The notes under the pieces: model-generated
Databases searched by the model: none
Told to the model about the DNA's origin: nothing
What the model saw: only the letters and a program-made list of their open reading frames with translations
IMG/VR virus record: IMGVR_UViG_3300023116_000031
Location: 1-64,000 of that record
Length of the DNA: 64,000 nucleotides
Source of the DNA: a virus
Reading direction: 5' to 3' (one strand)
Made by a program: the position numbers and the translations under genes
Shown: in pieces, positions 1 through 26,546 of the stretch
How positions within the stretch are numbered: the first letter of the stretch is position 1
How the letters are laid out: every line of letters begins with the position of its first letter

Positions 1-1
1 T

Positions 2-310
2 AGTGCCACTTACTTATTTACATTCGATTGGACAAATGGTTGTCATGCTGATGGCGTCGGTGATTTGGGCTGGAAGTGTGGTCATCTACTCAAGCTCGAT
101 GACGGCAATTTTAGCATTCAGCCTAATAATAGAATACTCTGGTACGATCCTGCGTTCGTGGCAAACCCGTATGAAGGAACGGATAAACCAGATTATCTAA
201 TCAACACACACGAATGGATTTGTGAATCTACTAAATCTAAGTATGTGACAACAGAGAACTCTGATAGAATGTTCTATGACGTGAAGGATAATGATGATGG
301 GTCTGTTTGA
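2..310 (+). CDS. Conserved phage protein, 5'-truncated
   Basis: The frame is open from base 2 (SATYLFTFDW...KCGH...QPNNRILWYD). This motif recurs in phage hypothetical proteins. Confidence 0.6.
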   Translation, partial: SATYLFTFDWTNGCHADGVGDLGWKCGHLLKLDDGNFSIQPNNRILWYDPAFVANPYEGTDKPDYLINTHEWICESTKSKYVTTENSDRMFYDVKDNDDGSV

Positions 311-1100
311 TATGACAGCAGAGGACTATCTGAAAGAAGTTGAGGGGTGGGTAGATCCTAATCCTGCGCCCGAGGTCGTGGAACACGATGGGCTGCTCGT
401 GGTGCGTGATGATATGCTTGGGTATGGATCAAAGATCCGTGGGCTCGACTACATGATCGGACATGCGCCAGAGTATGCTAATGTTGACAAGTGGTGCTTC
501 GGTGCTTGTCCTGCTGTTGGATACGCACAAATTAGTCTACCGTATCTTTGTAATCGCTATGGTAAGGAAGCGCACCTCTTTATGGCGAAGCGCAACATGG
601 ACAAGCTACACCCAAATCAAAAGATGGGAATTGAGCTTGGTGCTAACTATCATTGGATACCTAATGGTATGCTGAATGTGACTAAAGCAAGATGTCGTGA
701 ATATGTCGCAGAAGATCCTGAACATCGCATGGAGTTCCCTTTGGGATTGGAACATCCTACTGTCATTGGATCTCTGATAAAGGTTGCGAGAAACCTAAAT
801 ATTCAACCAGATCATGTCTGGTCAGTTGGAAGCAGCGGTACATTGAATCGAAGCCTTCAGCTCGCATGGCCTGATGCTGACTGTTTTGTGGTTGGTGTTG
901 GTCATGGTATGGATGATCGAGAGATAGGTAGAGCGACACACTTTAGATCGCCATACAAGTTCAATCAGAAGGTGAAGGATATGGATGCCCCTCCATATCC
1001 ATCGGTACCAGAATACGACGCAAAACTGTGGAGTGTGGTCCGAGAATACTACAAAGAGAACGAGAAACCTAATACGATCTTGTTATGGAATGTCGCATGA
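291..1100 (+). CDS. Fold-type II PLP-dependent enzyme (tryptophan synthase beta / ACC deaminase-like)
   Basis: VVRDD..GYGSKIR carries the putative Schiff-base Lys; VGSSGT is the phosphate-binding loop; YDAK is near the C-terminus. Confidence 0.75.
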   Translation: MMMGLFDMTAEDYLKEVEGWVDPNPAPEVVEHDGLLVVRDDMLGYGSKIRGLDYMIGHAPEYANVDKWCFGACPAVGYAQISLPYLCNRYGKEAHLFMAKRNMDKLHPNQKMGIELGANYHWIPNGMLNVTKARCREYVAEDPEHRMEFPLGLEHPTVIGSLIKVARNLNIQPDHVWSVGSSGTLNRSLQLAWPDADCFVVGVGHGMDDREIGRATHFRSPYKFNQKVKDMDAPPYPSVPEYDAKLWSVVREYYKENEKPNTILLWNVA

Positions 1101-1240
1101 GGACACACATATGCTACAGCGCCTACATAATCTGTGGAAGCGCATTTTAGGATTTCACGTTTGTTTCTACGTTACCCAAGTGAAACGGGTAAACGGCATC
1201 ACCCAGATGTTTACTGAATGTAAAACATGCGGAAAAAGAC

Positions 1241-1268
1241 TTGACAGATGATTGGATGGGATTATAAT
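1241..1268 (+). promoter_or_regulatory. Sigma70-type promoter, probably giving a leaderless mRNA
   Basis: TTGACA-N16-TATAAT, with an in-frame ATG at 1275. Confidence 0.7.
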
Positions 1269-1274
1269 ATACAC

Positions 1275-2858
1275 ATGATGACACCCGCATTCTATTCTCG
1301 TAACGCTGCCTTGATCGACGACCCATCGGTCAATCTTCTATTTGAAGATGCTATGGCAATGTCAGACAAGGAGTTTTCCGACTGGGCATGGAATCTCCGT
1401 AAATTGATAGTCAAGTTATGGGATCAGGGTATTCCTCCTCGCAACGGGCTCGACGAGCAGGGTATCATTGATCAGTTTGATCGCATGACAATCCACCCTG
1501 TCCACGAGTTTCTGCTTGAGGATCTACTGACTGGTGAAAAGAACGTCATTCGCAACGAAACTAATCTTGGTAATGCTGCCAATCAATGGTTCCCGTCCAT
1601 GCTGGCTACGCGCATCGCATACACATCCAAGCTGAACGATGCCAAGTCGGTATATGACTGGTTCGCTGATGATAGTCTCCATGAGCGATTTATGAAGTAT
1701 GTTCGCCGACACTATCAGCGAGATGGTTTCTATCACTACTCTATGCCTGTGCGTCGGAATAATGCAAAAGATTTCCTTTTTCATACAGAGAGCGGTGAGG
1801 AGTGGGTGAAATGGTTTGAAGCGAATAGAAGACATTATTTGGAAGATGACTATTGGCTTGCGCCCAAGTGCTTGAATAAAGCATATACGGGCGCTGCTGA
1901 GGACGAGGAAATCCATCATCAGCTTTTTATTCCCAAGGAGCATATCGCAGACCTCCCGATCCCCGAAACATCCAAATATAACATGGGGAACCCTGATGAT
2001 TGCGATGGATACCAAATCCGATACTACAAGCTGGGGCAGCGTATCTTCCCGCTGGGGCTGAAGACGTTTCGTGTTTCCTTCTGCCAGTATGCGGTCAACT
2101 ATCCTCCGCTGACAGCTCGGTATCTTTACGAACGATACACCGAACACATCAAGGATCAGGATGTAATCAATATCTACGATCCGTCGATGGGTTGGGGTGG
2201 TCGTATTCTTGGAGCGATGGCAGTCAAGGACGATCGTAACATTCACTACATTGGCACCGATCCTAACACAGATCATAATCTGCCTGATGGTACAACAAAG
2301 TATGCCAATCTCGCTGACTTCTATAATACACGCACAAATAGAGCAAACTCCCTATTTCCACATACGCACACATATGATATATTTCAACGTGGGTCGGAAG
2401 TGATAGGAGACGATGAGCGTTTTCAGAAGTATCGTGGAAAGTTGGATATGGTATTCACCAGCCCTCCATACTTTGCCAAAGAGATTTACTCTGAAGATCC
2501 TGAACAGTCCGCTCACAAATTTACTACATACAAGACCTGGCGAGATGGATTTCTTCGCCCAACACTAACAACTGCTGTTGAGTATCTGAAATCGGATCGC
2601 TATTTGTTATGGAACATAGCCAACTGTGTTTTTGATAATATCAACCTACCACTTGAGGATGACAGTCGAGCAATACTTGAAGAACTGGGAATGGAGTATG
2701 TAGAGACATTGAAGATGACTCTATCCACCATGCCAGGTGGTAATAGAGTGGATGAAGAAGGTAAGCCTCGCACCGAGAGTTTCGTTCGTATACGGAAGGT
2801 TGGTGGAGGAGAGATGTATCGCAAGTATGAACCCATATTTGTGTATCGCAAGCCATAA
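1275..2858 (+). CDS. Amino-DNA methyltransferase (N4-C/N6-A type)
   Basis: SAM-binding motif IYDPSMGWGGR and catalytic motif FTSPPYF. Start moved from 1248 to 1275 because of the promoter. Confidence 0.8.
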   Translation: MMTPAFYSRNAALIDDPSVNLLFEDAMAMSDKEFSDWAWNLRKLIVKLWDQGIPPRNGLDEQGIIDQFDRMTIHPVHEFLLEDLLTGEKNVIRNETNLGNAANQWFPSMLATRIAYTSKLNDAKSVYDWFADDSLHERFMKYVRRHYQRDGFYHYSMPVRRNNAKDFLFHTESGEEWVKWFEANRRHYLEDDYWLAPKCLNKAYTGAAEDEEIHHQLFIPKEHIADLPIPETSKYNMGNPDDCDGYQIRYYKLGQRIFPLGLKTFRVSFCQYAVNYPPLTARYLYERYTEHIKDQDVINIYDPSMGWGGRILGAMAVKDDRNIHYIGTDPNTDHNLPDGTTKYANLADFYNTRTNRANSLFPHTHTYDIFQRGSEVIGDDERFQKYRGKLDMVFTSPPYFAKEIYSEDPEQSAHKFTTYKTWRDGFLRPTLTTAVEYLKSDRYLLWNIANCVFDNINLPLEDDSRAILEELGMEYVETLKMTLSTMPGGNRVDEEGKPRTESFVRIRKVGGGEMYRKYEPIFVYRKP

Positions 2859-2869
2859 GGAGCAATAAG

Positions 2870-4471
2870 TTGACTGAGGAAATCCAAGACACTATCACGG
2901 TGAACGCTGAAGAACTCAGAGAGTTGCATCAAGAACACGCGCAAAGTGTTGCCATGAATCAGAGACTTGAGTATCTGCTTCAGCAAGCAAAAGTCAAGCT
3001 GGCGGAGATGAAGGATGAACTTGAGCGATTGAGTAATCCTCCGAATGTGTATGCTTCATTCCTTCACATGAACGATGATGGGTCGGCTGAAGTAATCGCA
3101 AATGGTAGACGAATGAGGTGTACCATTTCAAATCACATACCGATCGACGAGTTGCATCGTGGGCGTTATTTGATTATGAACGAGCAAATGGTTGCTATTG
3201 CCATTGGCCCCTACGCTGATGCGGGTGAAATCTGTAAGGTGCTTGAGGTACTTGACGATCGACGACTTGTTATTGAAGGGCGTCTCGACGAGAGGAAGAT
3301 CATTTACTTGAGGGATGGGCTCAAGGTAGAGGAGCGTCCACTCAAGCCGGGTGATGAAGTTCTCGTTGATCCCACAAGCGCAGTTGCTATGGAATATGTG
3401 TATAAGGTTGACGAGAAAGACACTCTACTCGAAAGCGTTCCTGATGTGACATATGATAAGATTGGTGGAATTGACGATGCGATTGAAATCGTTCATCATA
3501 GCGTCGAACTACCATACAAGCATCCTGATGTGTTCAAGGAGTTTGAGCTTAATGCACCCAAAGGCATCCTTTTGTATGGTCCGCCTGGATGCGGAAAGAC
3601 GTTGATCGCAAAGGCTATCGCAAACAGTCTGGCGAAGAAGGGTGGTGTATCACAGTTCATCAACATCAGCGGGCCTCAACTTCTCACCAAGTGGGTGGGT
3701 GAGTCGGAGCGACGTATCAGAGAGGTGTTCAACAAAGCGCGAGAGGCTGCGACACCTGAAAGCCCTGTTGTGATCTTCTTTGATGAGGCAGAGAGCTTGT
3801 TTCGTATGCGCGGATCAGGCAAGTCATCTGACATGGAAAGCACGATCGTTCCTACACTATTGGCTCAGTTGGATGGTGTTGAAGGGCTTGAGAACGTGTT
3901 AGTCATCTTCGCATCCAACAGACAAGATTTGATTGATCCTGCTGTTCTTCGACCTGGGCGCATTGATGTCAAGATCAGATTGTCACGACCTGATCGAGAT
4001 GCTTCAAAGAAAATCCTTAGTGTGTATTTACATTCTGGGCTGCCTATTGAGGGTGATCTGGATTCTATTCTGGATAAAACTATCGACTATCTATTTGAAG
4101 AAGCACCTAATAAAGAGTTCCTTGAGCTGGTGTATAATAAGGGGACGAGAGAAACTTTATACTTCAAGGATTTCTTATCAGGAGCGATGTTGGAAAACAT
4201 TGTTGCTCGGGCTAAGAAACTCGCAGTTCTTCGTCGAATAGAAGGTGAAACAACAGGTATCACTACAGAAGACATGATTACTGCTGTGGATCAAGAGTTC
4301 CATGCAACACGAGATTTGCCAAATACGAGTGATGTGTCTGATTGGCAAGCAATCACTGGGCGTAACAACGGTGAAGAGATTGTTAAGATCCGATCGCTTA
4401 TTCAAAAGAAGGAAGCAGAGGAAAAGAAACCGAAAAAGGTTGAAGATGCTGCCACCGGGCAATATCTATAA
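2870..4471 (+). CDS. arc: Proteasome-associated AAA+ ATPase (ARC/Mpa)
   Basis: N-terminal coiled coil ending in NPP, OB-like interdomain, VPDVTYDKIGG, Walker A GPPGCGKT, pore loop KWVGESE, Walker B FFDEAE, DPAVLRPGRID, LPNT..DW, and a C-terminal GQYL. Confidence 0.92.
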   Translation: MTEEIQDTITVNAEELRELHQEHAQSVAMNQRLEYLLQQAKVKLAEMKDELERLSNPPNVYASFLHMNDDGSAEVIANGRRMRCTISNHIPIDELHRGRYLIMNEQMVAIAIGPYADAGEICKVLEVLDDRRLVIEGRLDERKIIYLRDGLKVEERPLKPGDEVLVDPTSAVAMEYVYKVDEKDTLLESVPDVTYDKIGGIDDAIEIVHHSVELPYKHPDVFKEFELNAPKGILLYGPPGCGKTLIAKAIANSLAKKGGVSQFINISGPQLLTKWVGESERRIREVFNKAREAATPESPVVIFFDEAESLFRMRGSGKSSDMESTIVPTLLAQLDGVEGLENVLVIFASNRQDLIDPAVLRPGRIDVKIRLSRPDRDASKKILSVYLHSGLPIEGDLDSILDKTIDYLFEEAPNKEFLELVYNKGTRETLYFKDFLSGAMLENIVARAKKLAVLRRIEGETTGITTEDMITAVDQEFHATRDLPNTSDVSDWQAITGRNNGEEIVKIRSLIQKKEAEEKKPKKVEDAATGQYL

Positions 4472-4473
4472 CG

Positions 4474-4506
4474 AAAACGCCCCGGGCTGGTCCGGGGCGT
4501 TTCTTT
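4474..4506. terminator. Bidirectional intrinsic terminator
   Basis: AAACGCCCCGG/CCGGGGCGTTT stem lying between convergent genes. Confidence 0.8.
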
Positions 4507-4523
4507 GTCATCGGTTCAGTTGT

Positions 4524-7043
4524 TTACATCGGTCTTCGTATTACCCTTCTTTTACTTCGGGCCCGAGCAATAGCTCTGCGTCTTAAAACATCAGCATGTT
4601 GCTGGGAGGCTGCGGCTTTGCGTTTTTGTCTGTTTGCATCGTATCTATGTTTTGTGGAAGATACAGAGGCTTGATAATTTTTACTTGAGACGTTTCTTAC
4701 TAATTGATTTCCGGTCATCCCTTCACTTCGCATTCCACGAACTTTGTTACCATAATCACGAGCCTTAGTTCGTGCTAGTCGCTGCTTGGCAACCATGACA
4801 CGCTGCTTTGCTTGAGCGACACGCTCCTTGGCTGCATCAACATTCTCATCCACGGCAGGGTTGATCTTCACATCAGCCTTCCCCTTCTTACGTTCAGCCT
4901 TGTGAGCAGCACGCTTCGCGTCCTTGAGGGATTTCGTGCCAAGATACTTCTTCTCGAACTTCTGAACATTCAGCTCACGCGATGGCTTCGTGCGACCGAT
5001 CATTCCAGCTTCCGCTACCTCGACCTCTTCGTTTGGGAACAATCTCTTGTAGTTGCGACTGTTCTTGATCTTCGCTGATCGCTCTTTGCTAATCTGACGA
5101 AACAGTTTAGCAGCACCGCTTTTGTCACTCTTGCTGAAATAAAGACCAGCCTTGTCAGCACCAGCAGACTTGAGAGCATAGTTATCAGGATCATCAATCG
5201 GACCCGTTCCCTTCAGAGATGGTCTACGATCTGCCATTCTCTGAGCGCGCCCCACCTTTGACTTACGCATCTTATCGGGATGAAGAAGCATTGTGTCCAA
5301 TCCTACTCCACGTTGATCCAACTTGTCGCGAAGACCACCGGGCTTTCCACCCTTTCGGATCTTATGAAGAAGACCACCATACTTGGCTTCATCAACCTGC
5401 TCGACCTCTTCGCGAACAGGCTTGCCATCCTTGGAGATGATACCCTTCATTCCCTTCTTTTCAACTGCGGCTAGGAATCCCTTCGCTGCGTTTAGTGTGC
5501 CAAACTTTGACACCTGAATGGGTCCGCGCTTTGACTTGGCGTACTTGACTTCAAACTCATCGTCAGACCGAGAACTCTTTTCCCGCGACACCTTATCAAG
5601 AGCGCGATTAGTCATTGATTGCGCTCGGTTCTCATCAACCTGCTCGACCTCTTCACCCATTCGACGACGCTTCATGCTCTTGACGAGATCACCTGCTGTT
5701 GGTCCACCCTTGTCTCCACGGACACTGCGACCAAGCTCTCGGATACGCAGTCGTGCCTTCATGGGAACCTTGGACATCGGCATGTCACCATACTTGTCCA
5801 TCAGCTTGTTGTATTCAGACTTGGATTCATTGACCGGATAGAGCTTCTGAAGCTGTGCCACTGCCTTCTCTGCTCCAGAGAAGTTAGCGGTGTTGCGTAA
5901 TGAATAACGTAGCTTCTCGGGTGAATCAAACACATTCTTCAAACCACTCTTGGCTTTCCAGTAGTATTGAATCCTTCCTCCGCGCTTCACCATTCCAATC
6001 TCAACGGCATCTCCACCACTAACTTTAATAGTCGCAGATGTGGAATCTCCCTTGGCTTCCTGCATACTACGGTGAGTGCTTGAGTAAGTATTCAACTCAT
6101 ATGGATGTGAACCACCTTTGTTGTATACTTGAATGTGTATCTGGTGCTTCTTACCGGATTTATGAGTAGCAGGAACACTTACTGAAGTAGTCTTACCTTC
6201 GCCAGGCTTTTTGGAGTTTAGACCAATGTGGTGCATTTTGTCATCATCAGATGAACGTAGTCCACTCTTTGCGTGGTGAGCAAATGCGTGCTTTACGGCA
6301 TCAGTGTATGACTTGTGATATAGTTTATAGTCTGAGCCACGAGCCTCTTCGATTTCTTCTTCCTCTCCCTTTGCCTTCATCATAAAGTGCTTGCGCTTCT
6401 TTGATGGGGTGACACGCTCTATGTCACCGATCATGTCGGGCTTCTTAACTAACTTGCGGAGTTTCATTTTTACTTCAGCTTCTCCTGATCCATCAACAAT
6501 GATGGTTCCGATTCCTTCGACGCTTACTTTGTAACTTGACTCATCAACCTGTTCGACATCAGGATCATAAGAAGCATTGATCTCCTGATTTCTGAACGCA
6601 CGCTTTGAATAGAAAGCATTTTGACTAACAGGTCGTCTTCGATTTTGTGTCAGCCCGGGATTGTTACGAAGATGCTGCTCACGATCGCGCTTCTTCTTCG
6701 CGAGATACTGTTGGTATCGTTCAACCTTCTTCTCGTGTGCTGTCTTTCCAACATAAGGCTTGTCGGGATTCTTCGGACCAGACGGAGGAGTTGCCTCGTT
6801 GATTCTCTTTTTCAATACGACCTTCTTTGTTCTCACCTTAGCGTCCTCCTGTCCGGGGGTATCGTTTTTGTATTTATCTGTTAGTTTGTTTGTGCCCCAC
6901 TCACCAGCACCATGTTCTTCTTTGAACTGCTTATTTGCTGTTGCGTATAGCACACGCTCCCAATCAGCACCATATCGCTTCTTGAAAGCTGCCTTGTTCT
7001 TCATAATGAATCGTTCTGCCTTTTCCGATCTTGCTTCATTCAT
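4524..7043 (-). CDS. Lys/Arg-rich modular internal head (poly)protein
   Basis: Basic modules separated by repeated (E)EVEQVDE and x-x-E linkers that resemble T4 gp21 cleavage sites. The ATG at 7043 directly follows the upstream stop. Confidence 0.65.
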   Translation of the reverse strand: MNEARSEKAERFIMKNKAAFKKRYGADWERVLYATANKQFKEEHGAGEWGTNKLTDKYKNDTPGQEDAKVRTKKVVLKKRINEATPPSGPKNPDKPYVGKTAHEKKVERYQQYLAKKKRDREQHLRNNPGLTQNRRRPVSQNAFYSKRAFRNQEINASYDPDVEQVDESSYKVSVEGIGTIIVDGSGEAEVKMKLRKLVKKPDMIGDIERVTPSKKRKHFMMKAKGEEEEIEEARGSDYKLYHKSYTDAVKHAFAHHAKSGLRSSDDDKMHHIGLNSKKPGEGKTTSVSVPATHKSGKKHQIHIQVYNKGGSHPYELNTYSSTHRSMQEAKGDSTSATIKVSGGDAVEIGMVKRGGRIQYYWKAKSGLKNVFDSPEKLRYSLRNTANFSGAEKAVAQLQKLYPVNESKSEYNKLMDKYGDMPMSKVPMKARLRIRELGRSVRGDKGGPTAGDLVKSMKRRRMGEEVEQVDENRAQSMTNRALDKVSREKSSRSDDEFEVKYAKSKRGPIQVSKFGTLNAAKGFLAAVEKKGMKGIISKDGKPVREEVEQVDEAKYGGLLHKIRKGGKPGGLRDKLDQRGVGLDTMLLHPDKMRKSKVGRAQRMADRRPSLKGTGPIDDPDNYALKSAGADKAGLYFSKSDKSGAAKLFRQISKERSAKIKNSRNYKRLFPNEEVEVAEAGMIGRTKPSRELNVQKFEKKYLGTKSLKDAKRAAHKAERKKGKADVKINPAVDENVDAAKERVAQAKQRVMVAKQRLARTKARDYGNKVRGMRSEGMTGNQLVRNVSSKNYQASVSSTKHRYDANRQKRKAAASQQHADVLRRRAIARARSKRRVIRRPM

Positions 7044-7044
7044 G

Positions 7045-10000
7045 CTATGATCCGTTCGCTCCGATATATGTGCCGTCGCGCCCAAGCACATACCATGTAG
7101 GTTGCAATGATGTTGGATTTATCAACATCATACAAATGAAACTGGAGAGTCCAGCCTGACCTGAAATTGTAGGTGAAACCGTCCCTCCACCCGGCGTTTC
7201 AAATAGTGTTCCGTTAAAGAATATCGGAGCATGGCTGGCTCCGGTCTGAATAGTAAAGTCCGTAGCATATAAACCATGAATACAAAGATTAGCACCGTCA
7301 CTTAAAGTTGAAGAATCAGGAAGCACAAACGGGCCGGAGCCGCGAGTATCAATAAAATACCACTGCCCGTTCGCAAATGGAATGGGAATGTCTTCACTCC
7401 CGTCGCCGTAGTCCAAATAACGAACATCAACATTACCCCTGATTGTTCCCGAACCAAGATCCAGATTTGCTCCGTTGCTTCCTGCTCGCAATGTGACAGG
7501 GCCAGCAGTTCCACCGTTGAACTCAATATAATGTGTTGATGTGCTTCCGTCCGTACTAACACCATCATAGATTTTAATCTCTGGAAATGTGGAAACATCT
7601 CGCCCAACACCAATAGTCAACTGACAGTAATCTGGATCACTCACTCCCGTGCAGAGTGTAGAGAAACTAGCATCTAGTGTTGTAGATCCAGATCCAGGGT
7701 CACCAGCATAATCAGTGGCACCATCGAACGTATCAATGTCATAGTTAAGTGATCCAGCAGCAGTTAACTTACTTGTTACGTCGATATTGTTGAATAGAGC
7801 ATTTCCATTGACATCAACGCTCCAGTTTGAACTAGCAGTGTCTTCATCTTTAATCGCTTCAACGAAAAGTTGACCACTTTGATCCAATCGTAAGAGGTCT
7901 AACGATCCTCCATCGCGTTGAACATGAACAACGGGAGCCATATCTACACCGACCGGAGGCGCTTCAACGAGCAATGATGCTATGGTTCTATCATCTCCCT
8001 TTATCTTTACTTTACCATCCGTTGATGTTCCTGCACCAACGATAAGTCTATTTGTGGCGGCTGTAGCAAGAGACGCATTTCCTCCGCTATGTGTGATGGT
8101 TTGTGTGCTTGTTAGTGATGGTGTATTTACCGACGTTCCTGTGATGGCCCCAGCACTTGTGATACCCCAGTTGGTGCCTGGTCCGTCAAGGTCTTGAATA
8201 GCTTGAGTTCGAACTTCACCATCAGCCCAGGCTTTGAACACAGAAGCACCTGCAAATGTAATCAAATCGAGCAGAGGATTACCAGCAACTCCAGGTTGTC
8301 CATCGGCACCACGGACGATAAGTTGTGTGACTGTGGATTGTCCTCCAATCTCAACCTTTCCGGTACGACCTGCGATGTCATCCCCTACGGAAAGTGTCCC
8401 ATCAAAAGCAGCAGAACCATTATCGCTGATCGACCACTCCACTGGTGAATCAATATCTGTGAGGGATTTTAATGAGCCGACACCACCACTACTGATACTC
8501 CAGTTAGTGCTAGGAACATCGATGTCACCGATGGACTGAGCGTATACCGCACCATCAGCATCCACATTGAACAGCTCTGTTCCTGCGTTGTCCTCAACAA
8601 CAAAGACGGAATCTGTCTGTGTGCTATGTCCCTGAACGACGAGCTGTGGTTGATCTTGTGTGCCACCAATCTCTGCCTTACCAGCAAGCGCCGTGCCATC
8701 ACCAATAGTGAACAGCTCCGTTGCTCCAGATGTCAGCGTTGCGTTTCCACCGTTCTGCGTCAGCGCACCAGTATTTGTCAGCGCACCAGTATTTGTAATG
8801 TCTTTGAACTTACCTTCTCCGCCGGCTGTTATTTCCCAATTACCACCACTTGCATAAGCGTTACTGCGATCTCTCAGAGCTTCTGCGTAAATAAGACCAG
8901 TATCGAACATTTGAATTGGATTGCCGGTGGAGGCCGGGTCTGTGCGATCTTCTGATATTACAAATACTGGATTGGCATCAGTACCTTCGCGTGATGCCAC
9001 AACCAAGCCAACTTCATTGGCCACTCCTGAATATATCTCTACCGTTGGTGTAAAGAATCTATCTGTAAAATCTGCTCCTCCGACGACAGCAGAGTCAATA
9101 TCGGATACTCCTAAAACAGTTAACGATGATACCGTGGTTCCTTGAAAGATTGCTGTTCCGCCCGGAGCGATGCTCCAGTTATCACCTGGTCCGTCCGTAT
9201 CTGAAAGAGATTGAAACTGAGCTGCGCCGCTGGGAGGAATGACCCAGTTTGATGTACCTACACCTTTGGTTGGGTCTGGAAACCCAGTAAGATTGTTTGT
9301 GACTCGCACGCTACCATTATGAAATACATCAAACACTGTGTTGGTGGTATCAACCGTCGCGCCACCACCACCACTTACGGGATTAAATCCATATATTCTG
9401 AAGGCAGGCTGTCCAGCAGCACCGCTGCCGCCACTGTCAAGCGATGGGATCAGGTCCAACAGAGAAGTAGCACTTGTTGTTGTTCCTGTTATGTTCACTG
9501 CTGCTGAGATGTTATTCACATCAGGTGCGAGATCGCTGAGAACATTGTCTTCACACTTCTTGAACTTCCCTTCGCTGTCATTATAGAAAATGCCGCCATT
9601 CGCGTTGTCGAATGTGTTACAGTTCGTTAGTTCTCCTGCGACAAACTCTGCTCCCAAGTTAGAAACGACAAGCTCTGTTGTCAGTGAACCGAGACTTGTA
9701 ATACCTGTGCCGATCACATCAAATGTTACAACACCAGAAGTGTCCGTGACATTGACTGTGGATGTATCTTGAAGATCAGCGGATTGGATGATTGTTCCGC
9801 TTGAGTCCACTTGAATAGAGGATGATCCTACAGTTCGCGCTCCACACTGCCACAACGAACTGGTCTCATTCCACGCGATAGTGTCTCCGTTAGAACAACC
9901 TTGAAGTATTGCTAATTCGCCTGACTGTGTGAACTCAAGCCCAGATAGATTGGAGTTTGATCCGACCCCGTCTACTGCTCCATTAAGATCAACAGCAAAG

Positions 10001-17768: not shown

Positions 17769-18129
17769 TTGGATGCTGGGGGGAGTTCCCGGCGGAAAGG
17801 TGATCCCATGACTCTGACTGGTTTCTGTTTCGCGGCTGGAATGGCTGCCCTCGCGGGATGCGTCGCGTCCTATAAACGAGTCCACTGGATCGACTGCATC
17901 GGCATCTCGATCCTGGCTTTCGCCACTGGAGGCCTTCTCGTCATCACATTGGAGCCTGCACACTAATGCACTTAGAAACAGCACACTATACACCCACCAC
18001 TGAAGAGGCTCTCGAAACCGTTCGAGCTGAACGAGCCTTTTTGATTGAACTCTGCGCCGAGCTGCGGCGAGAGAATGAACGACTCCGAGCCGCTTTGATC
18101 GGTGTCCCTGAAGAGGAGCTTCCTTTCTA

Positions 18130-18462
18130 ATGAACGTCCATGCTTTCCCCATCTCTATTACTCGTCTCGAACTCTACTTTCCCGTTTCGGGCGAGGCTGA
18201 GGAAGTCTTTGCGCGGGAGGCTGCTATCGCGCCAGCCTTGGCTGCGCGTAAAGACGTAGGAGCCTCAGCCATCACTCGTCTGATCTTTACCGAGAACGAG
18301 GCTGTCTCAGCCGCTACGAATGCCATGCACCTGCGGAACCTGAAGGCCGCAGCCAAAGCCTACAACATGGCCTTCTTCTCGAAGTGGGTTTCGGCTGAGG
18401 CTGTGTTCGAGTGCGTGTCGAACTGGGCGCGAGGGGCTGCCTACGAGCTGACGGAGGTTTGA
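18130..18462 (+). CDS. Hypothetical early protein
   Basis: GAGGAG RBS; Ala-rich ORF. Confidence 0.55.
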   Translation: MNVHAFPISITRLELYFPVSGEAEEVFAREAAIAPALAARKDVGASAITRLIFTENEAVSAATNAMHLRNLKAAAKAYNMAFFSKWVSAEAVFECVSNWARGAAYELTEV

Positions 18463-18657
18463 AATGTCATTGATCGCCTGTGAAGTATGCACCACTGTTC
18501 TAGAGGCCGCGGCTGGCGACACGGTTGTCTGGGATGACCTGAGCCCCCTCTGTGTCGATTGCGCCGATGAGATTCCCCCGTGGGGACGACGCCCAGCTCG
18601 ACTACAGCGGCGTATGGCTCTGAATTATTTTCAGCCCTAGCCGGTCCTATCGCACCT

Positions 18658-18750
18658 ACAAAAAATAGTCTAAAACCCCTTTAAAATCAAGGGGTTGCGG
18701 CGGCGCAAATATTTGATTTCTGACCCATCTGGGCTATAATATGGGTGTAG
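18658..18750 (+). promoter_or_regulatory. Early promoter with an upstream 39-bp stem-loop repeat (copy 1)
   Basis: ACAAAAAATAGTCTAAAACCCCTTTAAAATCAAGGGGTT, then TTGATT-N16-TATAAT. Confidence 0.75.
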
Positions 18751-18898
18751 TGAGTGAGGAGAAAAGAGAGATGATCGAAACCCAAGCCCGAGTCCCCTTC
18801 CTTGAGGGTCACGTCGAAACCTTCCAATTTGAGATGATCGCCGTCGCTGTCGCGATCTTCCTCGCTCCCGTTTTCACCCTTCTCTAAAGGAAACCCAA

Positions 18899-19171
18899 AT
18901 GCCCAAAGCAATCACCGTATCTACCTTCAATCGCGAAGCTGGCGAGCTGAAATGGGAGTGTTCGTCGGTCGTCAGACCCAGCGATCTCTTTCGCCCGTGG
19001 GAACCCGAGAACATGGTCTCGGCGGCTACGAACTCGTTCGGAACCAGCGTCCTCATCAATGTCGATTCGGTCGAAACCTCGATGATGGCGAAACTGTCGC
19101 TCGAAGAAGCCATCGCGCTTCGCAAGGAACTCAACAAGGCGATCAACGCCGTCCGAAAGGAACTCAACTAA
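18899..19171 (+). CDS. Hypothetical early protein
   Basis: AAGGA RBS; GC3-biased codons. Confidence 0.6.
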   Translation: MPKAITVSTFNREAGELKWECSSVVRPSDLFRPWEPENMVSAATNSFGTSVLINVDSVETSMMAKLSLEEAIALRKELNKAINAVRKELN

Positions 19172-19172
19172 C

Positions 19173-19514
19173 ATGATGAAAGAAGAAATCCTCGGTCGCC
19201 TCGCGGTCCTGATCGGTCGTATTGACGAGAAGCTCGTCGCCTATTACGCGAAAACCTATGACTTCGTTGAGCCGCCCGAGCTGCGGGTCCGTCTGGGGCG
19301 CCGCTACGCCAAGATCGTGCGGACCGGTGCTGGGCGTGGCGAATCGGTCTACTTCTTCGTAGACCTCGACAACGGCGACCTGCTGAAGGCTGCGTCCTAC
19401 AAGGCCCCTGCGAAGGGCGCTCGGGCCTCGCTGTTCGACGACGATCTGGGCATCTCTGCTGTGGGCCCGCACGGTGCGGGCTACGCTGGTGTCAACTACG
19501 ATGGAGCATGGTGA
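19173..19514 (+). CDS. Conserved phage early protein
   Basis: GRRYAKIV...SVYFFVD...GDLLKAASYKAPAKGAR motif, common in T4-like early genes. Confidence 0.7.
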   Translation: MMKEEILGRLAVLIGRIDEKLVAYYAKTYDFVEPPELRVRLGRRYAKIVRTGAGRGESVYFFVDLDNGDLLKAASYKAPAKGARASLFDDDLGISAVGPHGAGYAGVNYDGAW

Positions 19515-19696
19515 TGGGTGAGTATGATGAAATGACGGCTGAAGAGCTGCTGGCTGAGATTCGGCTCGTTCAAGGCATTCTGGAGTTCGAGACGGGTTTC
19601 GCGGCTGAGACGATGGAAGCCTTCTCGGAGGTTCTGGGCGAGCTGATCGAAGCACATCGGCTGAGGGCTGCTGGCGAGACGGCAGAGGGGTTCTGA
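19508..19696 (+). CDS. Small acidic hypothetical protein
   Basis: Coupled to the upstream ORF. Confidence 0.5.
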   Translation: MVMGEYDEMTAEELLAEIRLVQGILEFETGFAAETMEAFSEVLGELIEAHRLRAAGETAEGF

Positions 19697-19876
19697 CGGC
19701 TTTCGGTATACTTGTTAGTCGTAGCGCGCTCTGCGCGCGTAGAACGGCTTTCGGCAGTATATTGTTATAATACCGCCTGGGACTCCTAGCCGCTAGACCC
19801 CCCCAATACAATGGGGGAGAGGGTTAGCGTGAATGCCGGAATCAAAATTTTTTCCGGCACCCCAGCACACCCCCAG

Positions 19877-19904
19877 ACCTTTACGCGCGCTGCGCGCGCT
19901 ACAT
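19877..19904 (-). repeat. Right arm of the 28-bp inverted repeat
   Basis: ACCTTTACGCGCGCTGCGCGCGCTACAT. Confidence 0.85.
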
Positions 19905-19965
19905 TAACGAAGTTCCTTACCTTACCCTTCACCTTCCCACCTTCCCACAAAGGAAACACATCGTT

Positions 19966-20145
19966 ATGAACGAACTGAAAGCATACAAGCAAGCTCTCCA
20001 CCTCGCGCTCAAGACGCTCGCTGAGACTGAACTGGCTCCCACCGAGGCTCTGCTCGACCTTGAACAGGCTGTCGCGTTTCTCGAATACAAATATAATTTT
20101 ACCTCGGAAAATTTCTGCGGTAGTCTTTCGTCGGAAGACTTCTGA
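19966..20145 (+). CDS. 59-aa hypothetical protein (not in the ORF track)
   Basis: AAGGA RBS; hand translation MNELKAYKQALHL...SSEDF. Confidence 0.5.
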   Translation: MNELKAYKQALHLALKTLAETELAPTEALLDLEQAVAFLEYKYNFTSENFCGSLSSEDF

Positions 20146-20148
20146 AAA

Positions 20149-20481
20149 ATGGCAAAACGAAAGATGTGGAAAGAGGGCTCGAAGGAATACTCCCTTCACG
20201 AGTCGGGATCGCTCGCGATTACGGTAAAGCTGAAGAGCATCAACTCTGCTCTGATGGTTATCGTAAATACGGCTACGAACCCTCCGCAATATGATAGTGG
20301 AGCATGGTGGCCACTTCGGCTCGATGGCGGATTTTCAGCGGAGCCTGTCGAGTTTGGCTACACCCCCGGAGAGCCTGGCTCTGCATGGCCGTGGAATTGT
20401 CTGTCAGAGGAAGACGAGGCTTTGGTTGACGATCTGGTGACAGAGGTTGGTTGCATGTTGTTTGATCATCAAAGGAGTTGA
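20149..20481 (+). CDS. Hypothetical protein
   Basis: ORF in the tightly packed plus-strand run. Confidence 0.55.
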   Translation: MAKRKMWKEGSKEYSLHESGSLAITVKLKSINSALMVIVNTATNPPQYDSGAWWPLRLDGGFSAEPVEFGYTPGEPGSAWPWNCLSEEDEALVDDLVTEVGCMLFDHQRS

Positions 20482-20609
20482 TTGAGAATGGACCTTTACA
20501 TTTTTCTTGGTGTTGTTTCGTGGTTTGTTCTTTCACTTGTCTTCGGTGTTTTCATCGGTGGGCTTTTGAAAAGAAATTCTGATTACTATGATGTAGTAGG
20601 AGAGGAGGA

Positions 20610-20852
20610 GTGATGGCTATGGGCGAGAAACGAAGGTTTTCTGTGGTGTGGAGAGAATATCGAGATTGCGAAGCGGTGATCGAAGCAGACTCGATCGAGG
20701 AAGCGGAGGCAATGATTGTCGATGATGATGGCGACTTGGTGTCCGCAGCCGAGATGGAATCTGTGGTGGAGGAGCTGTGGCGCAGCGATCTGTTCGTTGA
20801 GTCTGGTTCAGAGTTTCTCGATGAGATTGTGGAGGAGGATGACGATGAGTGA
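20610..20852 (+). CDS. Acidic hypothetical protein
   Basis: GAGGAGGAG RBS; IEADSIEEAE motif. Confidence 0.6.
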   Translation: MMAMGEKRRFSVVWREYRDCEAVIEADSIEEAEAMIVDDDGDLVSAAEMESVVEELWRSDLFVESGSEFLDEIVEEDDDE

Positions 20853-21039
20853 CAGCAGGCTCGAAATCTTTGAAGAACTGGCTGATCATGCAGAATCTCT
20901 GGAGGAGGTTCTGGTTCGCATGTGCGAGCTGGTCTCGGACCTGGAGATGAGCATCAACGAGGATGAGAGGCTTCGCTCGGAAAGTCGATTGTTTGAGTTT
21001 GCGAGTGAGGCTGCAAGGATGGTTCAGGAGGGTCGATAG
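20845..21039 (+). CDS. Acidic helical hypothetical protein
   Basis: MSDSRLE start overlaps the upstream stop. Confidence 0.55.
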   Translation: MSDSRLEIFEELADHAESLEEVLVRMCELVSDLEMSINEDERLRSESRLFEFASEAARMVQEGR

Positions 21040-21154
21040 CGATGGAAAATGAAGTGGTCAAAGAAATCTTGGCTCCGTTGGAGGAGGCTCTCGATCAGGT
21101 GCGTTCGGACCTTTTGAGGTTGTTTGCAAAGATGTTTGAGGAGGACTGAGAAAA

Positions 21155-21703
21155 ATGGCGGCAGGGCGTCGATACCATAGGGCGGTTGGATACTGCGAAA
21201 ATAGTGACTGTGTGCAGAAGCATCGCGGAGTGTTTCTTCTGAACAATCCGGGGGAGTTCTATTGCCCGAGTTGTCGAGAGGAGGGGTTCGTCGAATCGGA
21301 GGAAGGAAGTTTCTCTGGCAATCCAGAGATGTTCAACGAGGTTCGTGTTGAGTTTGATTTTGCTCCTGCGGATCGAACCTATTCAGCCACAGCCATTGTT
21401 CGTGATGAGAGCTTGGGTGATGTGAACCAGCATGGCATTCCGCATGGCGTCTATGTTATTCGATCGCCTTTGGTCAAGACGCATGTTCGCGCATTGAAGG
21501 TGGCTGAGTCGGTGCTTTCTACTCTGAGCGTCTATGGCGGGCTGGACGAGAAGAGCGAGCTGCCGAGGTCGAGCGAGGTTCTGCTGAGCTTCGATAAGCC
21601 GAGGGCTGAGTTTGCCAAGGATCTCGTTCGGCTAGCCGAGAGCTGGGAGGCTGGGCCGAAGGCCAACATCGAAGCGGAGCCGTTCCTTCCCCGAGGGAAG
21701 TGA
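21155..21703 (+). CDS. Putative zinc-binding protein
   Basis: C-x4-C (CENSDC) and CPSC pairs; good RBS. Confidence 0.6.
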   Translation: MAAGRRYHRAVGYCENSDCVQKHRGVFLLNNPGEFYCPSCREEGFVESEEGSFSGNPEMFNEVRVEFDFAPADRTYSATAIVRDESLGDVNQHGIPHGVYVIRSPLVKTHVRALKVAESVLSTLSVYGGLDEKSELPRSSEVLLSFDKPRAEFAKDLVRLAESWEAGPKANIEAEPFLPRGK

Positions 21704-21779
21704 AACCGAAAAAACGTAGCGAAAACAGGGAGTTAGCCGGTTCAAACTATTTTTCGCCCTCGCCGGTTCTACGGGGTCC

Positions 21780-21877
21780 ACAAAAAATAGTCTAAAACCC
21801 CTTTAAAATCAAGGGGTTCCCGAGGGGACAAGGCTTTACTTTTTGGCTGAACTGTCCGATAATATAAGTGTAGTGAG
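21780..21877 (+). promoter_or_regulatory. Early promoter with the 39-bp stem-loop repeat (copy 2)
   Basis: Identical 39-mer to 18658-18696; TTTACT-N17-GATAAT; shares the GTGTAGTGAG leader. Confidence 0.75.
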
Positions 21878-21896
21878 AAAAAAGGAGTTCCCGAGA

Positions 21897-22079
21897 ATGG
21901 TTGACGGTTGGATTGCGTTCTACAAAGGAAAGAGCGTCGAGATTCCGCGCGACGATAGCTTGCCCGATCTTTGGGCAGTCAAGCTCCGCGCGATCGAGTT
22001 GCTGAACGTGCCCAAGTCTGGGCGAGGGCTGCTGGCCATTGCTCCGGCCTACAACGAGGAGAACACTGAGAATGAGTGA
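21897..22079 (+). CDS. Small early protein (GWIA.YKGK family), copy 1
   Basis: Paralog of 22212..22397. Confidence 0.65.
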   Translation: MVDGWIAFYKGKSVEIPRDDSLPDLWAVKLRAIELLNVPKSGRGLLAIAPAYNEENTENE

Positions 22080-22209
22080 AGAGCTGGAAGAGTTGAAACG
22101 AACCGTCGAGGCTCTTCGTGAAGAGCGCGAGTGGCTTCTGAATGAGCTTGCTCGTTTCGTAAACTGGTGTGCCAAGAATCATGGTGCCTGCAACAGTGAG
22201 GAAAACTGA
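22072..22209 (+). CDS. 45-aa coiled-coil protein (not in the ORF track)
   Basis: MSEELEELKRTVEALREERE...; similar to the N-terminus of the 22400 ORF. Confidence 0.55.
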   Translation: MSEELEELKRTVEALREEREWLLNELARFVNWCAKNHGACNSEEN

Positions 22210-22211
22210 GA

Positions 22212-22397
22212 ATGAGTGATGGATGGAAAATGGAAGGATGGATCGCAATTTATAAGGGAAAGCGGATCGAGATTCGCTTGGACGAAACCGATAGTCTCTG
22301 GGGCGCGGAGCAGATTGCCATCGAGCGGCTTAGGGTTCCGAAGAGTAAACGAGGTCTGCTGGCAATCGCTCCCGGCTACAGTGAGGAGAACGGCTGA
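22212..22397 (+). CDS. Small early protein (GWIA.YKGK family), copy 2
   Basis: GWIAIYKGK...VPKSKRGLLAIAPGY. Confidence 0.65.
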   Translation: MSDGWKMEGWIAIYKGKRIEIRLDETDSLWGAEQIAIERLRVPKSKRGLLAIAPGYSEENG

Positions 22398-22399
22398 GA

Positions 22400-22801
22400 A
22401 TGATTGAAGAACTGAAAGGAATCGTCAAGGATCTTCGCGAAGAACGCGAGCGGATTCTGGGTGTGCTTGATCGTTTTGCGATGCCTGCGGGCAGGGGAAA
22501 GAGGAAAACTGAAATGAGTGATGATGTGATTTTTCTGAATAGTGTCGGATCTGCTTTGGTTCGTTCGACGCTTCACGTTTACCCCGTCGAACCCAATGGG
22601 CATGTGATCTTCGATCCTTGTCTCGGCACTCCTTTGGAGAACTGCGAGGCTGAGTGGGTCAATGCGCTCGACGAGACTGACTGGAGCCTGATCGCTGACG
22701 CTGCGTATCTCACTGAAGGTGAGGTTGCGTTTGCCAAAAAGCTCGCGCGCGAGTGGAATGACGAGCCGCTGTTTGCGGCTGATCCTCGCGGAAATGACTG
22801 A
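22400..22801 (+). CDS. Hypothetical protein, probably a fusion of two small ORFs
   Basis: Internal RBS plus ATG junction motif at about 22501-22520. Confidence 0.5.
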   Translation: MIEELKGIVKDLREERERILGVLDRFAMPAGRGKRKTEMSDDVIFLNSVGSALVRSTLHVYPVEPNGHVIFDPCLGTPLENCEAEWVNALDETDWSLIADAAYLTEGEVAFAKKLAREWNDEPLFAADPRGND

Positions 22802-22808
22802 GGGAGAA

Positions 22809-23027
22809 ATGAAAGTTCGATTGATCGGCAAATCGAGACACGGCAAAAACCGTGTTCGTGAACATGGCGAGTTGTGGAATGTCGAAGCAGAGTGCGCGAC
22901 ATTGATTGCTCGACCGGGAGCAAATGGTCCATTTCTGTTTCTGCGACCAGCAAACGGTTCCGATGATATGCGGTGGGTTGCAGAAAACAACGATCCCAAC
23001 TTCAACCTTGAGTTTGTGGAGGATTGA
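22809..23027 (+). CDS. Conserved small phage protein
   Basis: LIGKSRHGKNRVREHG..W...RWV....DPNF motif. Confidence 0.65.
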   Translation: MKVRLIGKSRHGKNRVREHGELWNVEAECATLIARPGANGPFLFLRPANGSDDMRWVAENNDPNFNLEFVED

Positions 23028-23030
23028 GAG

Positions 23031-23276
23031 ATGGACATTCCCAACTGGACTGCGACGTGTCCCGAGAACGAGACGGTTCACGCGAAGATCGAGCGAGAAC
23101 TGCGCGCGAACGTCTACGACGACCTGACTCTGGGTCGAGCGATCGGGTTCGCGTTCTACAAGCTGGGTTATCAGAAGTGGCGCGCTGCTCCGTTCGCTGA
23201 GTGGGTGATACGGAATCTGGAAACGAAGGAACAGTGGGCTGCTCGAATGGGCAGAATTATGGAAGGTAAGGGATGA
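23031..23276 (+). CDS. Hypothetical protein
   Basis: GGAGG RBS; packed ORF. Confidence 0.55.
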   Translation: MDIPNWTATCPENETVHAKIERELRANVYDDLTLGRAIGFAFYKLGYQKWRAAPFAEWVIRNLETKEQWAARMGRIMEGKG

Positions 23277-23740
23277 GGACGATCGACGTTTACAATCGAG
23301 AGCAGTTTCGGATGCTCGTGCCCGATCCCGATATGTGCGTGATTTCCTGCCAGACTCCTCCGACGACGTGGGGAGAGGGGACTCTTTCCGAGATCCCGAA
23401 TGGCTGGGGTGATACTCTGGTTCTGGAGTTTCACGACGTGCTTCAACAGTCTTCCCCGGAGATGGTGGTCTTCGATGCGAAGATGGCAGATCGGGTTGTC
23501 GATTTCGTTGAGAAGGGAGGTCGCCGGTTCGTGGTTCACTGCGATGCTGGTCAATCTCGATCGGTGGCAATCGGTCTGTGGTTGAGTCAGTATCACGATT
23601 ACGACGAGGAGACTCCGATGCGTCTCCACGCTGCTCCGCATATGGGTGGCTACAACTCGACGGTTCTGCGTGAGCTTCGGCAAGCAGAGAATCGTTACTG
23701 GTATGGTGAAGACTATACCGTTCCAACAGAAGAGGATTGA
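23273..23740 (+). CDS. Cys-based protein tyrosine/dual-specificity phosphatase-like protein
   Basis: P-loop VHCDAGQSRS (CX5R) with an upstream FHD acid loop. Confidence 0.8.
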   Translation: MRTIDVYNREQFRMLVPDPDMCVISCQTPPTTWGEGTLSEIPNGWGDTLVLEFHDVLQQSSPEMVVFDAKMADRVVDFVEKGGRRFVVHCDAGQSRSVAIGLWLSQYHDYDEETPMRLHAAPHMGGYNSTVLRELRQAENRYWYGEDYTVPTEED

Positions 23741-23743
23741 GAA

Positions 23744-24049
23744 ATGATTTCAGTACGTTCAAATGAATTTCCGAATCGAGGCGAGGTGAGTAATGTTCGG
23801 TTCACGTTCGACAACGGGCACTCTGTTTCACTCGGCGTGTCTGCTTTTCACTACTGCTCTCCGCGCACGCAGCAGGGATTGAACCCTGAGCGTGAAGGCG
23901 TGGAGCTTGCGGTCATTCTGGAAAGCGGAGGATGGGGTACGCGCGAAGCGGTCTACGAGGTTCTGGGATATGATCCCGGTGACGATGTAGCCGCGAATCT
24001 CACGGCTGACGAGGTTGCGCGAATGATCGCGCACGTTCAGAGTTGGTGA
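23744..24049 (+). CDS. Conserved phage hypothetical protein
   Basis: FTFDNGHSVS...ELAVI...DDV..NLT.DEV pattern. Confidence 0.6.
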   Translation: MISVRSNEFPNRGEVSNVRFTFDNGHSVSLGVSAFHYCSPRTQQGLNPEREGVELAVILESGGWGTREAVYEVLGYDPGDDVAANLTADEVARMIAHVQSW

Positions 24050-24053
24050 TCAG

Positions 24054-24218
24054 ATGAAGCTCACGAGCAACACGACCAATGACACAATCAAGGCGATCAA
24101 GCGTGCTGCTCGTGAGCTTCACAAGGATATGCCGGCTGGTGGTCGGCACGGAACGAAAAAGGGCAAGCGTGGCTATACTCGCAAGCCCAAACACAAGAAG
24201 GTAAATGATGAGCGATAA
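24054..24218 (+). CDS. 54-aa basic protein with an ArfA-like motif (not in the ORF track)
   Basis: KKGKRGYTRKPKHK resembles the ArfA motif KKGKGSY.RK.KH. Confidence 0.45.
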   Translation: MKLTSNTTNDTIKAIKRAARELHKDMPAGGRHGTKKGKRGYTRKPKHKKVNDER

Positions 24219-24420
24219 TGATTTTTTCGATTGCGTGATCTGCGAAGAAGATGTTGACCCGCGCCGGGTTGCTCTCGGATACAAGACCTGCCTCGAATGT
24301 GGCGGCAGGGTTGCTGAGCAAGAGCGCGCTCGCAAGGCTCGATCGTCTGCTCCTGCGTTCAACAAGGGTGCGTATATGTATGTTACGAGCCGACGAATGG
24401 CTCTCGATGTGGGGAGGTGA
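24205..24420 (+). CDS. C4 zinc-finger protein, TraR/DksA-like
   Basis: CVICEEDVDPRRVALGYKTCLEC. Confidence 0.6.
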   Translation: MMSDNDFFDCVICEEDVDPRRVALGYKTCLECGGRVAEQERARKARSSAPAFNKGAYMYVTSRRMALDVGR

Positions 24421-26517: not shown

Positions 26518-26546
26518 TACGCAGTAACAAAAAAGAGGTGTGTCGC

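Follow-up and report, generated by a model that had tools for sequence, protein, structure and literature searches.

What use might a phage have for the regulatory ATPase of a bacterial proteasome? The question is posed by a gene close to the beginning of the stretch analysed here, the first 64 kb (the window) of the 73,822-bp linear IMG/VR record IMGVR_UViG_3300023116_000031 (G000), which CheckV rates as about 40% complete. Bacterial proteasomes are usually regarded as an actinobacterial speciality, and the record is, judging from its genes, that of a lytic marine T4-like myovirus. We assign the protein encoded by this gene to the ARC/Mpa family of proteasomal AAA+ ATPases, and in our best-supported reading, to which we give a probability of roughly 0.6, it docks on the 20S proteasome of the host. 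We note that the family is a known one in a new setting: a streamlined ARC with changed pore loops, carried, without the other components, by a lytic marine T4-like phage.

The gene product and its family

An earlier note on this DNA, drawn up from the letters alone, had described a complete ARC architecture comprising coiled coil, OB region, Walker A and B motifs, pore loop, arginine fingers and a terminal GQYL, and every one of these elements was recovered by family profiles, by alignment to Mpa or in a structural model (Table 1). The NCBIfam equivalog TIGR03689 (pup_AAA) scores 588.1 bits against a cut-off of 504.75, with residues 15-510 corresponding to model positions 2-511, and in the same profile search of the 533-residue protein the PAN, CDC48 and FtsH models all score far under their own cut-offs, so that the protein falls with ARC and not, as the note had considered, with Cdc48 or FtsH. 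Pfam places Prot_ATP_ID_OB_N at residues 61-120, Prot_ATP_ID_OB_C at 121-175 and a single AAA module at 233-372 (PF00004, E-value 8e-38). Mpa of Mycobacterium tuberculosis (Mtb; 7px9) aligns with residues 15-533, the tail covered, at an E-value of 1e-134; no PHROG family spans beyond the AAA part of the protein.

The AlphaFold model, built on a 9-row alignment and with a mean predicted local distance difference test (pLDDT) score of 70.6, opens with an N-terminal helix of 53 residues, which is followed by two domains rich in beta structure, the AAA core with the hairpin at 416-431, and a disordered tail. The helix is ended by a Pro-Pro hinge (P57-P58) that is invariant, and the beta-grasp/hairpin strands lie at 416-422, 427-431 and 504-509, the loop of the hairpin aligning without gaps to Mtb residues 501-505. 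When this model was compared with the PDB using Foldseek, the best 30 matches were all Mpa (E-values of about 1e-43 to 1e-36), followed by the Rpt subunits (about 1e-21 to 1e-23); the template modelling (TM) scores were low (about 0.3), as the monomer model poses its domains differently. Taken together, these comparisons indicate a true ARC/Mpa, a full member of the family, and by analogy the protein would be expected to form a hexameric ring with ATPase and unfoldase activity.

The protein belongs to a phage clade that numbers about 50 member sequences (P0001-P0006) in a large protein database, 63-99% identical; beyond it come thousands of bacterial ARCs, none more than 49% identical.

The docking tail and competing readings

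The case for docking is made chiefly by the last four residues. The 19-residue linker in front of GQYL has 3 invariant columns in the clade and has undergone insertions and deletions, while GQYL itself is invariant at 4 of 4 positions in 7 of 7 members, a pattern that points to a constraint of the tail's own. What this constraint might signify was examined in an actinobacterial order, that around Populibacterium (151 genomes, with 20S genes in 100 and ARC in 140), where the 3' end of the ARC gene was read in all 40 genomes that have ARC and no 20S and in 20 sampled genomes that have 20S. None of the 40 ends in GQYL (there are 34 different endings), which argues that the tail is not kept after the proteasome is lost, and 10 of the 20 sampled 20S-positive actinobacterial genomes do end in it. 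By this comparison GQYL is a usable genomic predictor of a working partnership between ARC and 20S. Since it is invariant behind a variable linker in the phage clade and lost where the 20S is absent, we regard a host 20S as the probable docking target, and the suggestion of the earlier note that the phage hijacks the host proteasome is upheld, indirectly, as far as the use of the host 20S goes. The tail-less ARCs of the 20S-positive genomes (L160-L169) have endings such as SDLV, HVEL and SSLI; either they dock differently or the partnership is decaying.

Alternatively, the phage ARC might be an unfoldase that works independently of a proteasome, taking host complexes to pieces, whether tagged or not, and leaving them undegraded. 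There is a precedent in Corynebacterium glutamicum, which has Pup and ARC and no 20S, and in which ARC is thought to act as a disassembly machine, its ferritin being the documented example of ARC function without a proteasome (PMC8223512); a phage record in which no 20S gene was found would accommodate such a role. The invariant tail behind its variable linker speaks against it, as does the lack of that tail in 40 of 40 bacteria without 20S. The hairpin does so as well. In Mtb its loop, 501-ANGDK-505, touches the H0 helices of the 20S (PMC9599533; PMC8755798), and this loop is likewise not kept once the proteasome is gone (PMC8755798). The phage clade retains the 20S-contacting form, with the pattern [ANS]-K-G-[DNT]-R in which length, glycine and charged residues are kept. 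We consider a purely proteasome-independent role improbable, if the least so of the alternatives.

A different possibility accepts the docking and reverses its consequence: the phage ARC would fill the pockets of the host 20S, or soak up Pup-tagged proteins, and thereby stop degradation, for instance protecting phage proteins. The retention of both tail and coiled coil is compatible with a blocker, and the pore loops might be read in the same sense. The Trp in pore loop 1 of the phage ARC stands at a position occupied by Tyr or Phe in 29 of 30 bacterial ARCs, and at the pore loop 2 position of K318 all 7 clade members have Lys or Arg, against Ile, Val or Leu in all other ARCs aligned; the Trp and the clade-specific basic residue could alter translocation. 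Against this stands the conservation of the motor, which shows no variation in Walker A, Walker B, the arginine fingers or pore loop 1; with 128 of 175 columns invariant in the clade, the AAA core is the most conserved part of the protein, and such conservation is unexpected if binding alone mattered. We therefore hold a blocking role to be distinctly improbable. The gene as a whole is under purifying selection, with a ratio of nonsynonymous to synonymous substitution rates (dN/dS) of 0.057 in comparison with L002, a contig 98% identical to the record. In the bacterial set a Trp at this place of pore loop 1 occurs once, in P0007 (LTKWVGETE), a 585-residue protein from a 9.7-kb JGI/ENA contig.

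If docking on a 20S is accepted, the question becomes whose 20S this would be, and we look to the host because the phage, as far as it has been sequenced, has none. The earlier note had seen no pup, pafA, dop or prcAB in the window, and our profile searches bear this out and extend it to the whole 73.8-kb record, in which Pup (PF05639), UBact (NF033388), the Dop/PafA ligase family (PF03136) and the 20S family (PF00227) all give no match at an E-value of 1 or less. A search for small open reading frames (ORFs) ending in GG[QE] yielded no convincing one in the record, and a Pup-like mini-protein directly 3' of ARC was considered and rejected, as a terminator and then a convergent gene stand there. 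Neither ligase nor 20S genes were found in 13 ARC-bearing viral records, which include the complete 112-kb genome (G009) of another phage clade, and L002 and L003 have no Pup, UBact, ligase or 20S gene; the contexts of P0002-P0006, P0135 (a 153.7-kb contig) and P0155 (a 61.5-kb contig) fall outside this survey of gene context. One might still suppose that 20S subunits, perhaps with Pup and a ligase as well, are encoded in the missing 60% or so of the genome and that the phage would bring a self-contained system; a completeness of about 40%, and the clade member P0135 on its 153.7-kb contig, leave room for it. The 0 of 13 result for ligase and 20S, and their absence from the 81 kb surveyed for this phage (G000 and the upstream region of L002), argue otherwise, as does the arrangement in bacteria, where the genes of the system usually lie within a few kb of arc, and we judge such a system very unlikely. 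All five bacterial genomes with close ARCs, among them marine Myxococcota-type, Poribacteria and Acidobacteria metagenome-assembled genomes (MAGs), have adjacent prcB/prcA and a canonical Pup. One Poribacteria MAG (G017, the genome of L099) has two pairs of 20S subunit genes, at C29:80196-81802 and C42:10863-12366, one beside the canonical Pup and the other beside a UBact gene, and seems to operate the two tagging systems together.

The gene is situated close to an end of the record, and the possibility that a bacterial arc was joined to phage DNA by misassembly, or that host DNA was caught at the edge of a prophage, is scarcely credible given that independent contigs from three studies bridge the junctions, that L002 runs 7 kb upstream into T4-type core genes, that phage genes lie on both sides, that no copy above 48% identity exists among about 185,000 bacterial species-representative genomes, and that the G+C content at third codon positions (GC3) is phage-like, at 0.44 against 0.89-0.96 in bacterial ARCs. 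Specifically, 11 salt-marsh runs contain the stretch 1248-7100 (over half of the words sampled), which is met again in seawater runs from other studies; a single 4.3-kb contig of run X1 covers 603-4908; and the join of the upstream gene to ARC is crossed by contigs of X12 and X14, which come from other studies, that of X12 continuing past the ARC stop codon. The chimeric assembly that the earlier note had named as a refutation is not supported, and the ARC is encoded by the phage.

Assuming that the phage ARC does dock on the 20S of its host, a sequence of events may be proposed. The phage would make a working ARC/Mpa unfoldase early in infection from a host-type sigma-70 promoter, and the protein would assemble into the usual hexamer, dock on the host 20S through its GQYL tails and beta-hairpin, and thread proteins into it. 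The substrates would most likely be host proteins already tagged with Pup and caught by the conserved coiled coil, and proteasomal degradation would be raised or redirected in the phage's favour. In this sequence the assembly of the hexamer, the docking on the host 20S, the recognition of Pup, the choice of substrates and the gain for the phage are inferred; what is shown is the family of the protein, its intact motifs, its phage origin, the purifying selection on it and the specific conservation of its tail. The substrates might include the defence proteins suggested in the earlier note, which also named amino-acid recycling and competition with host ARC.

With regard to Pup recognition, the helix that forms the coiled coil matches the Pup-receptor region of Mpa, its residues N30, L33, L37 and L54 are invariant over the phage and bacterial ARCs aligned, and it is of full length, with 56 residues before the Pro-Pro hinge as compared to 33-34 in the actinophage proteins L005 and L010. 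On the side of Pup, the helix that binds ARC hardly varies from phylum to phylum. A complex predicted for two copies of ARC(1-125) with the Pup of a marine Myxococcota-type MAG, used as a stand-in, scored 0.54 against 0.29 for the best of three controls, which lends Pup binding weak support; the score may owe something to the Mpa-Pup complex already solved. Among complexes with solved structures 58 of 80 attain this mark, as do 2 of 110 mismatched pairs, and at 0.60 or below it is attained by only 7 of the 80 and by both of these mismatches; the runs agreed in at least 47% of contacts, with a pLDDT of the partner of at least 55.

A number of observations weigh against this account of docking and substrate capture, and that predicted complex, which is weak, is one of them. 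The coiled coil is the least conserved domain of the clade, with 11 of 44 columns invariant, and pore loop 2 departs from that of other ARCs in its clade-specific Lys or Arg. The hairpin loop of the present protein, NKGTR, is without the acidic residue that would match Mtb D504, although most clade members have D at this position. The link between GQYL and the 20S is not one-to-one, given that half of the sampled 20S-positive actinobacteria lack the tail, and the 40 tail-less genomes are related to one another and do not represent independent events. Finally, the presence of a 20S in the host is presumed, and with about 40% of the genome in hand further parts of the system may be present on the phage.

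Descent, host and neighbourhood of the gene

The T4-like assignment of the record is drawn from core genes of replication and late transcription, the structural genes lying outside the fragment. Among its T4-type genes are a gp43-type DNA polymerase (phrog_262, 1086 bits), which is about 50% identical to its best matches in Synechococcus myoviruses, a DnaB-type helicase, a primase, a ribonucleotide reductase (RNR) and PhoH, and a cluster for sugar modification is also present; the 7 kb by which L002 extends further upstream adds a UvsW-type helicase, a gp55-type late sigma factor and a gp46/47-type nuclease. There are no tRNA genes in the record, and neither WhiB nor psbA in the T4-like records. 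At 18000-28100 the window has a GC-rich island (0.51-0.59 as compared to about 0.46 elsewhere) with no family matches, in which long overlapping ORFs occupy both strands at 26743-28080.

In the trees the phage clade is monophyletic on a long stem, with Shimodaira-Hasegawa-like approximate likelihood ratio test (SH-aLRT) values of 93-100, and falls inside neither the actinobacterial nor the Myxococcota-type clade; the outgroup, a tail-less ARC-like protein (L014) that is 33% identical to the phage ARC, sits on a very long branch and the placement of the root is unsure. A grouping of the T4-like clade with the Myxococcota type receives 68% support, and a grouping with another phage clade is not rejected (approximately unbiased test, p-AU 0.59). 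This second viral clade comprises L004, L005, L009, L010 and L013 and includes G009, a complete genome with terminal repeats that we take to be an actinophage because it carries two WhiB genes. Common to both phage clades are the Trp of pore loop 1, the loss of an insert of about 13 residues and a shortened first insert. The T4-like phage and the actinophage represent two unrelated phage lineages with a tailed ARC.

A metagenome scan with very general patterns returned, among the matches listed, bacterial-type ARCs only (49% identity or less) and no further clade member, and the cultured-phage records hold no full-length tailed ARC; the genes annotated as ‘proteasome-associated ATPase’ in Brevundimonas phages match residues 186-494 only, at 32%. 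An unannotated 159-kb ‘Bacteriophage sp.’ sequence from human faeces (L108, MT835496.1) has a high-GC ORF of 1021 amino acids at 5986-9051, the first 500 or so residues of which are ARC-like (42% over residues 18-497) and are followed by about 500 without assignment; it forms a very long branch.

Which bacteria, then, might be infected? The earlier note had confined the possible hosts to Actinobacteria and a few other lineages. ARC does narrow the hosts, and that range was drawn too tightly, for complete sets of ARC, Pup and 20S occur also in MAGs of Poribacteria, of Acidobacteria and of the Myxococcota type. Diderm hosts are known for T4-like phages, and the type of the phage points to a diderm of one of these kinds at least as much as to an actinobacterium; a proteasome-bearing diderm host is plausible. 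Two observations point weakly to marine bacteria of the Myxococcota type, in which ARC, Pup and 20S are all present. One is the likeness of the hairpin loops: the phage pattern is close both to A-K-G-E-R of the Myxococcota type and to T-R-G-E-R of Poribacteria, and the second position is N in Actinobacteria and in the actinophage clade. The other is L012 (IMGVR_UViG_3300006750_004266, 1-4979), a 5-kb phage contig with a phage exonuclease, a phrog_461 gene and a phrog_11903 homolog 42% identical to the copy in G000, whose ARC is 75-76% identical to marine Myxococcota-type ARCs, has a GC3 of 0.50 against their 0.89, and runs off the contig before the tail; it looks like a separate, younger capture from the Myxococcota-type group.

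The gene for ARC is the second of a two-gene unit read by the host sigma-70 polymerase (Table 1). Perfect matches to TTGACA-N16-TATAAT number 2 in the 64 kb against 0.05 expected, the other lying at 61910-61937. Both hexamers of the site before the unit are kept in L002 and L003 while the spacer in L003 is wholly different, the signature of a working promoter. In T4-type phages a host-type sigma-70 promoter means early expression, and by analogy the phage ARC would be made early in infection. The ribosome-binding site and terminator that the earlier note had given to the gene are both present; as the promoter precedes the upstream gene, ARC does not form a unit by itself. An N-terminus of MTEE or MSEE is common to clade members and fits the TTG start. 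Small contigs of the RNA run X24 lie at 2836-2993 and 4156-4306; contigs from an RNA library cannot show transcription, and we do not count them as expression.

Table 1. Coordinates of the phage ARC gene, its motifs and adjoining features in the window.
Feature	Position	Strand	Remarks
ARC/Mpa-family proteasomal AAA+ ATPase gene	2870..4471	+	533 amino acids (aa); TTG start; C-terminus ...DAATGQYL
N-terminal coiled-coil helix, aa 3-55	2876..3034	+	AlphaFold helix 3-55; aligned with Mpa 52-96
Double OB domain, aa 59-176	3044..3397	+	PF17758 E 5.5e-16, PF16450 E 1.8e-12, both over cut-off
Walker A GPPGCGKT, aa 237-244	3578..3601	+	invariant in every aligned ARC
Pore loop 1 KWVG, aa 274-277	3689..3700	+	Mtb equivalent K340-G343 (PMC8755798)
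Walker B VIFFDE, aa 301-306	3770..3787	+	motif read in protein
Pore loop 2 contact residue K318 (Mtb V384)	3821..3823	+	alignment; PMC8755798
Arginine-finger region PAVLRPGR, aa 357-364	3938..3961	+	motif read in protein
Beta-hairpin, aa 416-431, loop NKGTR (Mtb 501-ANGDK-505)	4115..4162	+	model, alignment; PMC9599533, PMC8755798
C-terminal GQYL, 20S docking motif	4457..4468	+	invariant in 7/7 clade members
Consensus sigma-70 promoter TTGACA-N16-TATAAT	1241..1268	+	12/12 match; precedes two-gene unit
Shine-Dalgarno AAGGAG	2857..2862	+	7 nt 5' of TTG start
Upstream gene, 536 aa	1248..2858	+	N-terminal part without assignment; weak DNA-methyltransferase-like C-terminus
Hairpin terminator, 12-bp stem (8 GC pairs)	4475..4502	.	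between convergent ARC gene and 855-aa gene

The first gene of the unit matches Pfam N6_N4_Mtase under the cut-off (E-value 3.8e-4) as well as phrog_12517 and phrog_498, has a dN/dS of 0.036, and is represented in L003 by a syntenic, 84% identical counterpart. The start listed for it, at 1248, falls within the promoter, and the real one is probably at 1275/1278, just 3' of the promoter. The -10 hexamer ends 6-8 nt 5' of the ATG both in the window (1241-1280) and in L003 (about 8340-8390), and the mRNA of this gene may be leaderless or nearly so. The notion that it is an obligatory partner of ARC was rejected, as it is absent beside ARC in L004, L005, L009, L010 and L012. On the other side, at 4524-7091 (-), a very basic protein of 855 amino acids with repeated VEQVDE-type linkers and no family match is encoded by a hypervariable gene that adjoins the conserved ARC; contigs from other samples diverge or skip 4518-4721, 5003-5382 and 5823-6558, and L002 matches 322 of its residues at 71%.

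A fuller reading that draws these threads together is, at this stage, tentative. We speculate that a lytic marine T4-like lineage infects Myxococcota-type diderms, that its early, streamlined ARC with altered pore loops takes over the host 20S and the pool of Pup-tagged proteins, and that this copy, together with those of the actinophages, belongs to an ancient ARC lineage of phages, one that has passed among phages of very dissimilar kinds. If so, it would stand as the first case in prokaryotes of a proteasome activator encoded by a virus; the literature searched, with subscription journals outside its coverage, holds no report of a phage ARC/Mpa or of a link between bacterial proteasomes and phage infection. 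A selected docking tail on a phage activator would imply that proteasomal degradation matters in the infection of some marine bacteria. In practical terms, the phage ARC offers a natural compact variant, of 533 residues and with changed pore loops, for comparison with Mpa, and might serve as a sequence marker limiting the hosts of an uncultured phage lineage to 20S-bearing bacteria. Such genes may escape the pipelines used to find auxiliary metabolic genes, since at least one of these discards proteasome hits by design (PMC12911398).

Comparison with known systems

The closest well-described counterpart is Mpa of M. tuberculosis (5KWA, 5KZF, 7PX9), with which the phage ARC shares 42-46% identity over its whole length and the same order of domains, from coiled coil through double OB and one AAA module to the beta-grasp hairpin and GQYL. 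It differs from Mpa in its setting, a lytic T4-like phage in which pup, dop, pafA and prcAB are missing from the vicinity of the gene, in being about 75 residues shorter (the N-terminus is short and two inserts are gone), and in having Trp in pore loop 1, Lys in pore loop 2 and NKGTR in place of ANGDK in the hairpin loop.

The ARCs of Myxococcota-type marine MAGs (e.g., L029, ‘Deltaproteobacteria bacterium SP124’) are among the best bacterial matches, at 46-48%, and have a similar hairpin loop; in these genomes Pup and prcBA lie side by side. Unlike the phage ARC, they are 560-640 residues long, with long N-termini, both inserts and a GC3 of about 0.9.

The ARC of the 112-kb actinophage (IMGVR_UViG_3300028800_000005, G009/L010) likewise has the GQYL tail, the Trp of pore loop 1 and no insert after the LP motif, and its genome, which is complete, is like G000 in having no ligase or 20S. 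That phage differs in its two WhiB genes, its 60% GC, its origin in soil and its separate ARC clade, and its protein has 34 as compared to 56 residues before the PP motif, a hairpin of the actinobacterial type and a hydrophobic pore loop 2.

More distant are PAN and Rpt1-6, which also combine a coiled coil, OB and AAA domains and a C-terminal tail whose penultimate Tyr opens the 20S gate. They have a single OB, no beta-grasp insertion and an HbYX tail instead of GQYL, and the distance is evident in the scores, the phage ARC reaching 223 bits with the PAN models (cut-off 500) and matching Rpt structures at E-values of 1e-21 to 1e-23 as compared to 1e-43 for Mpa.

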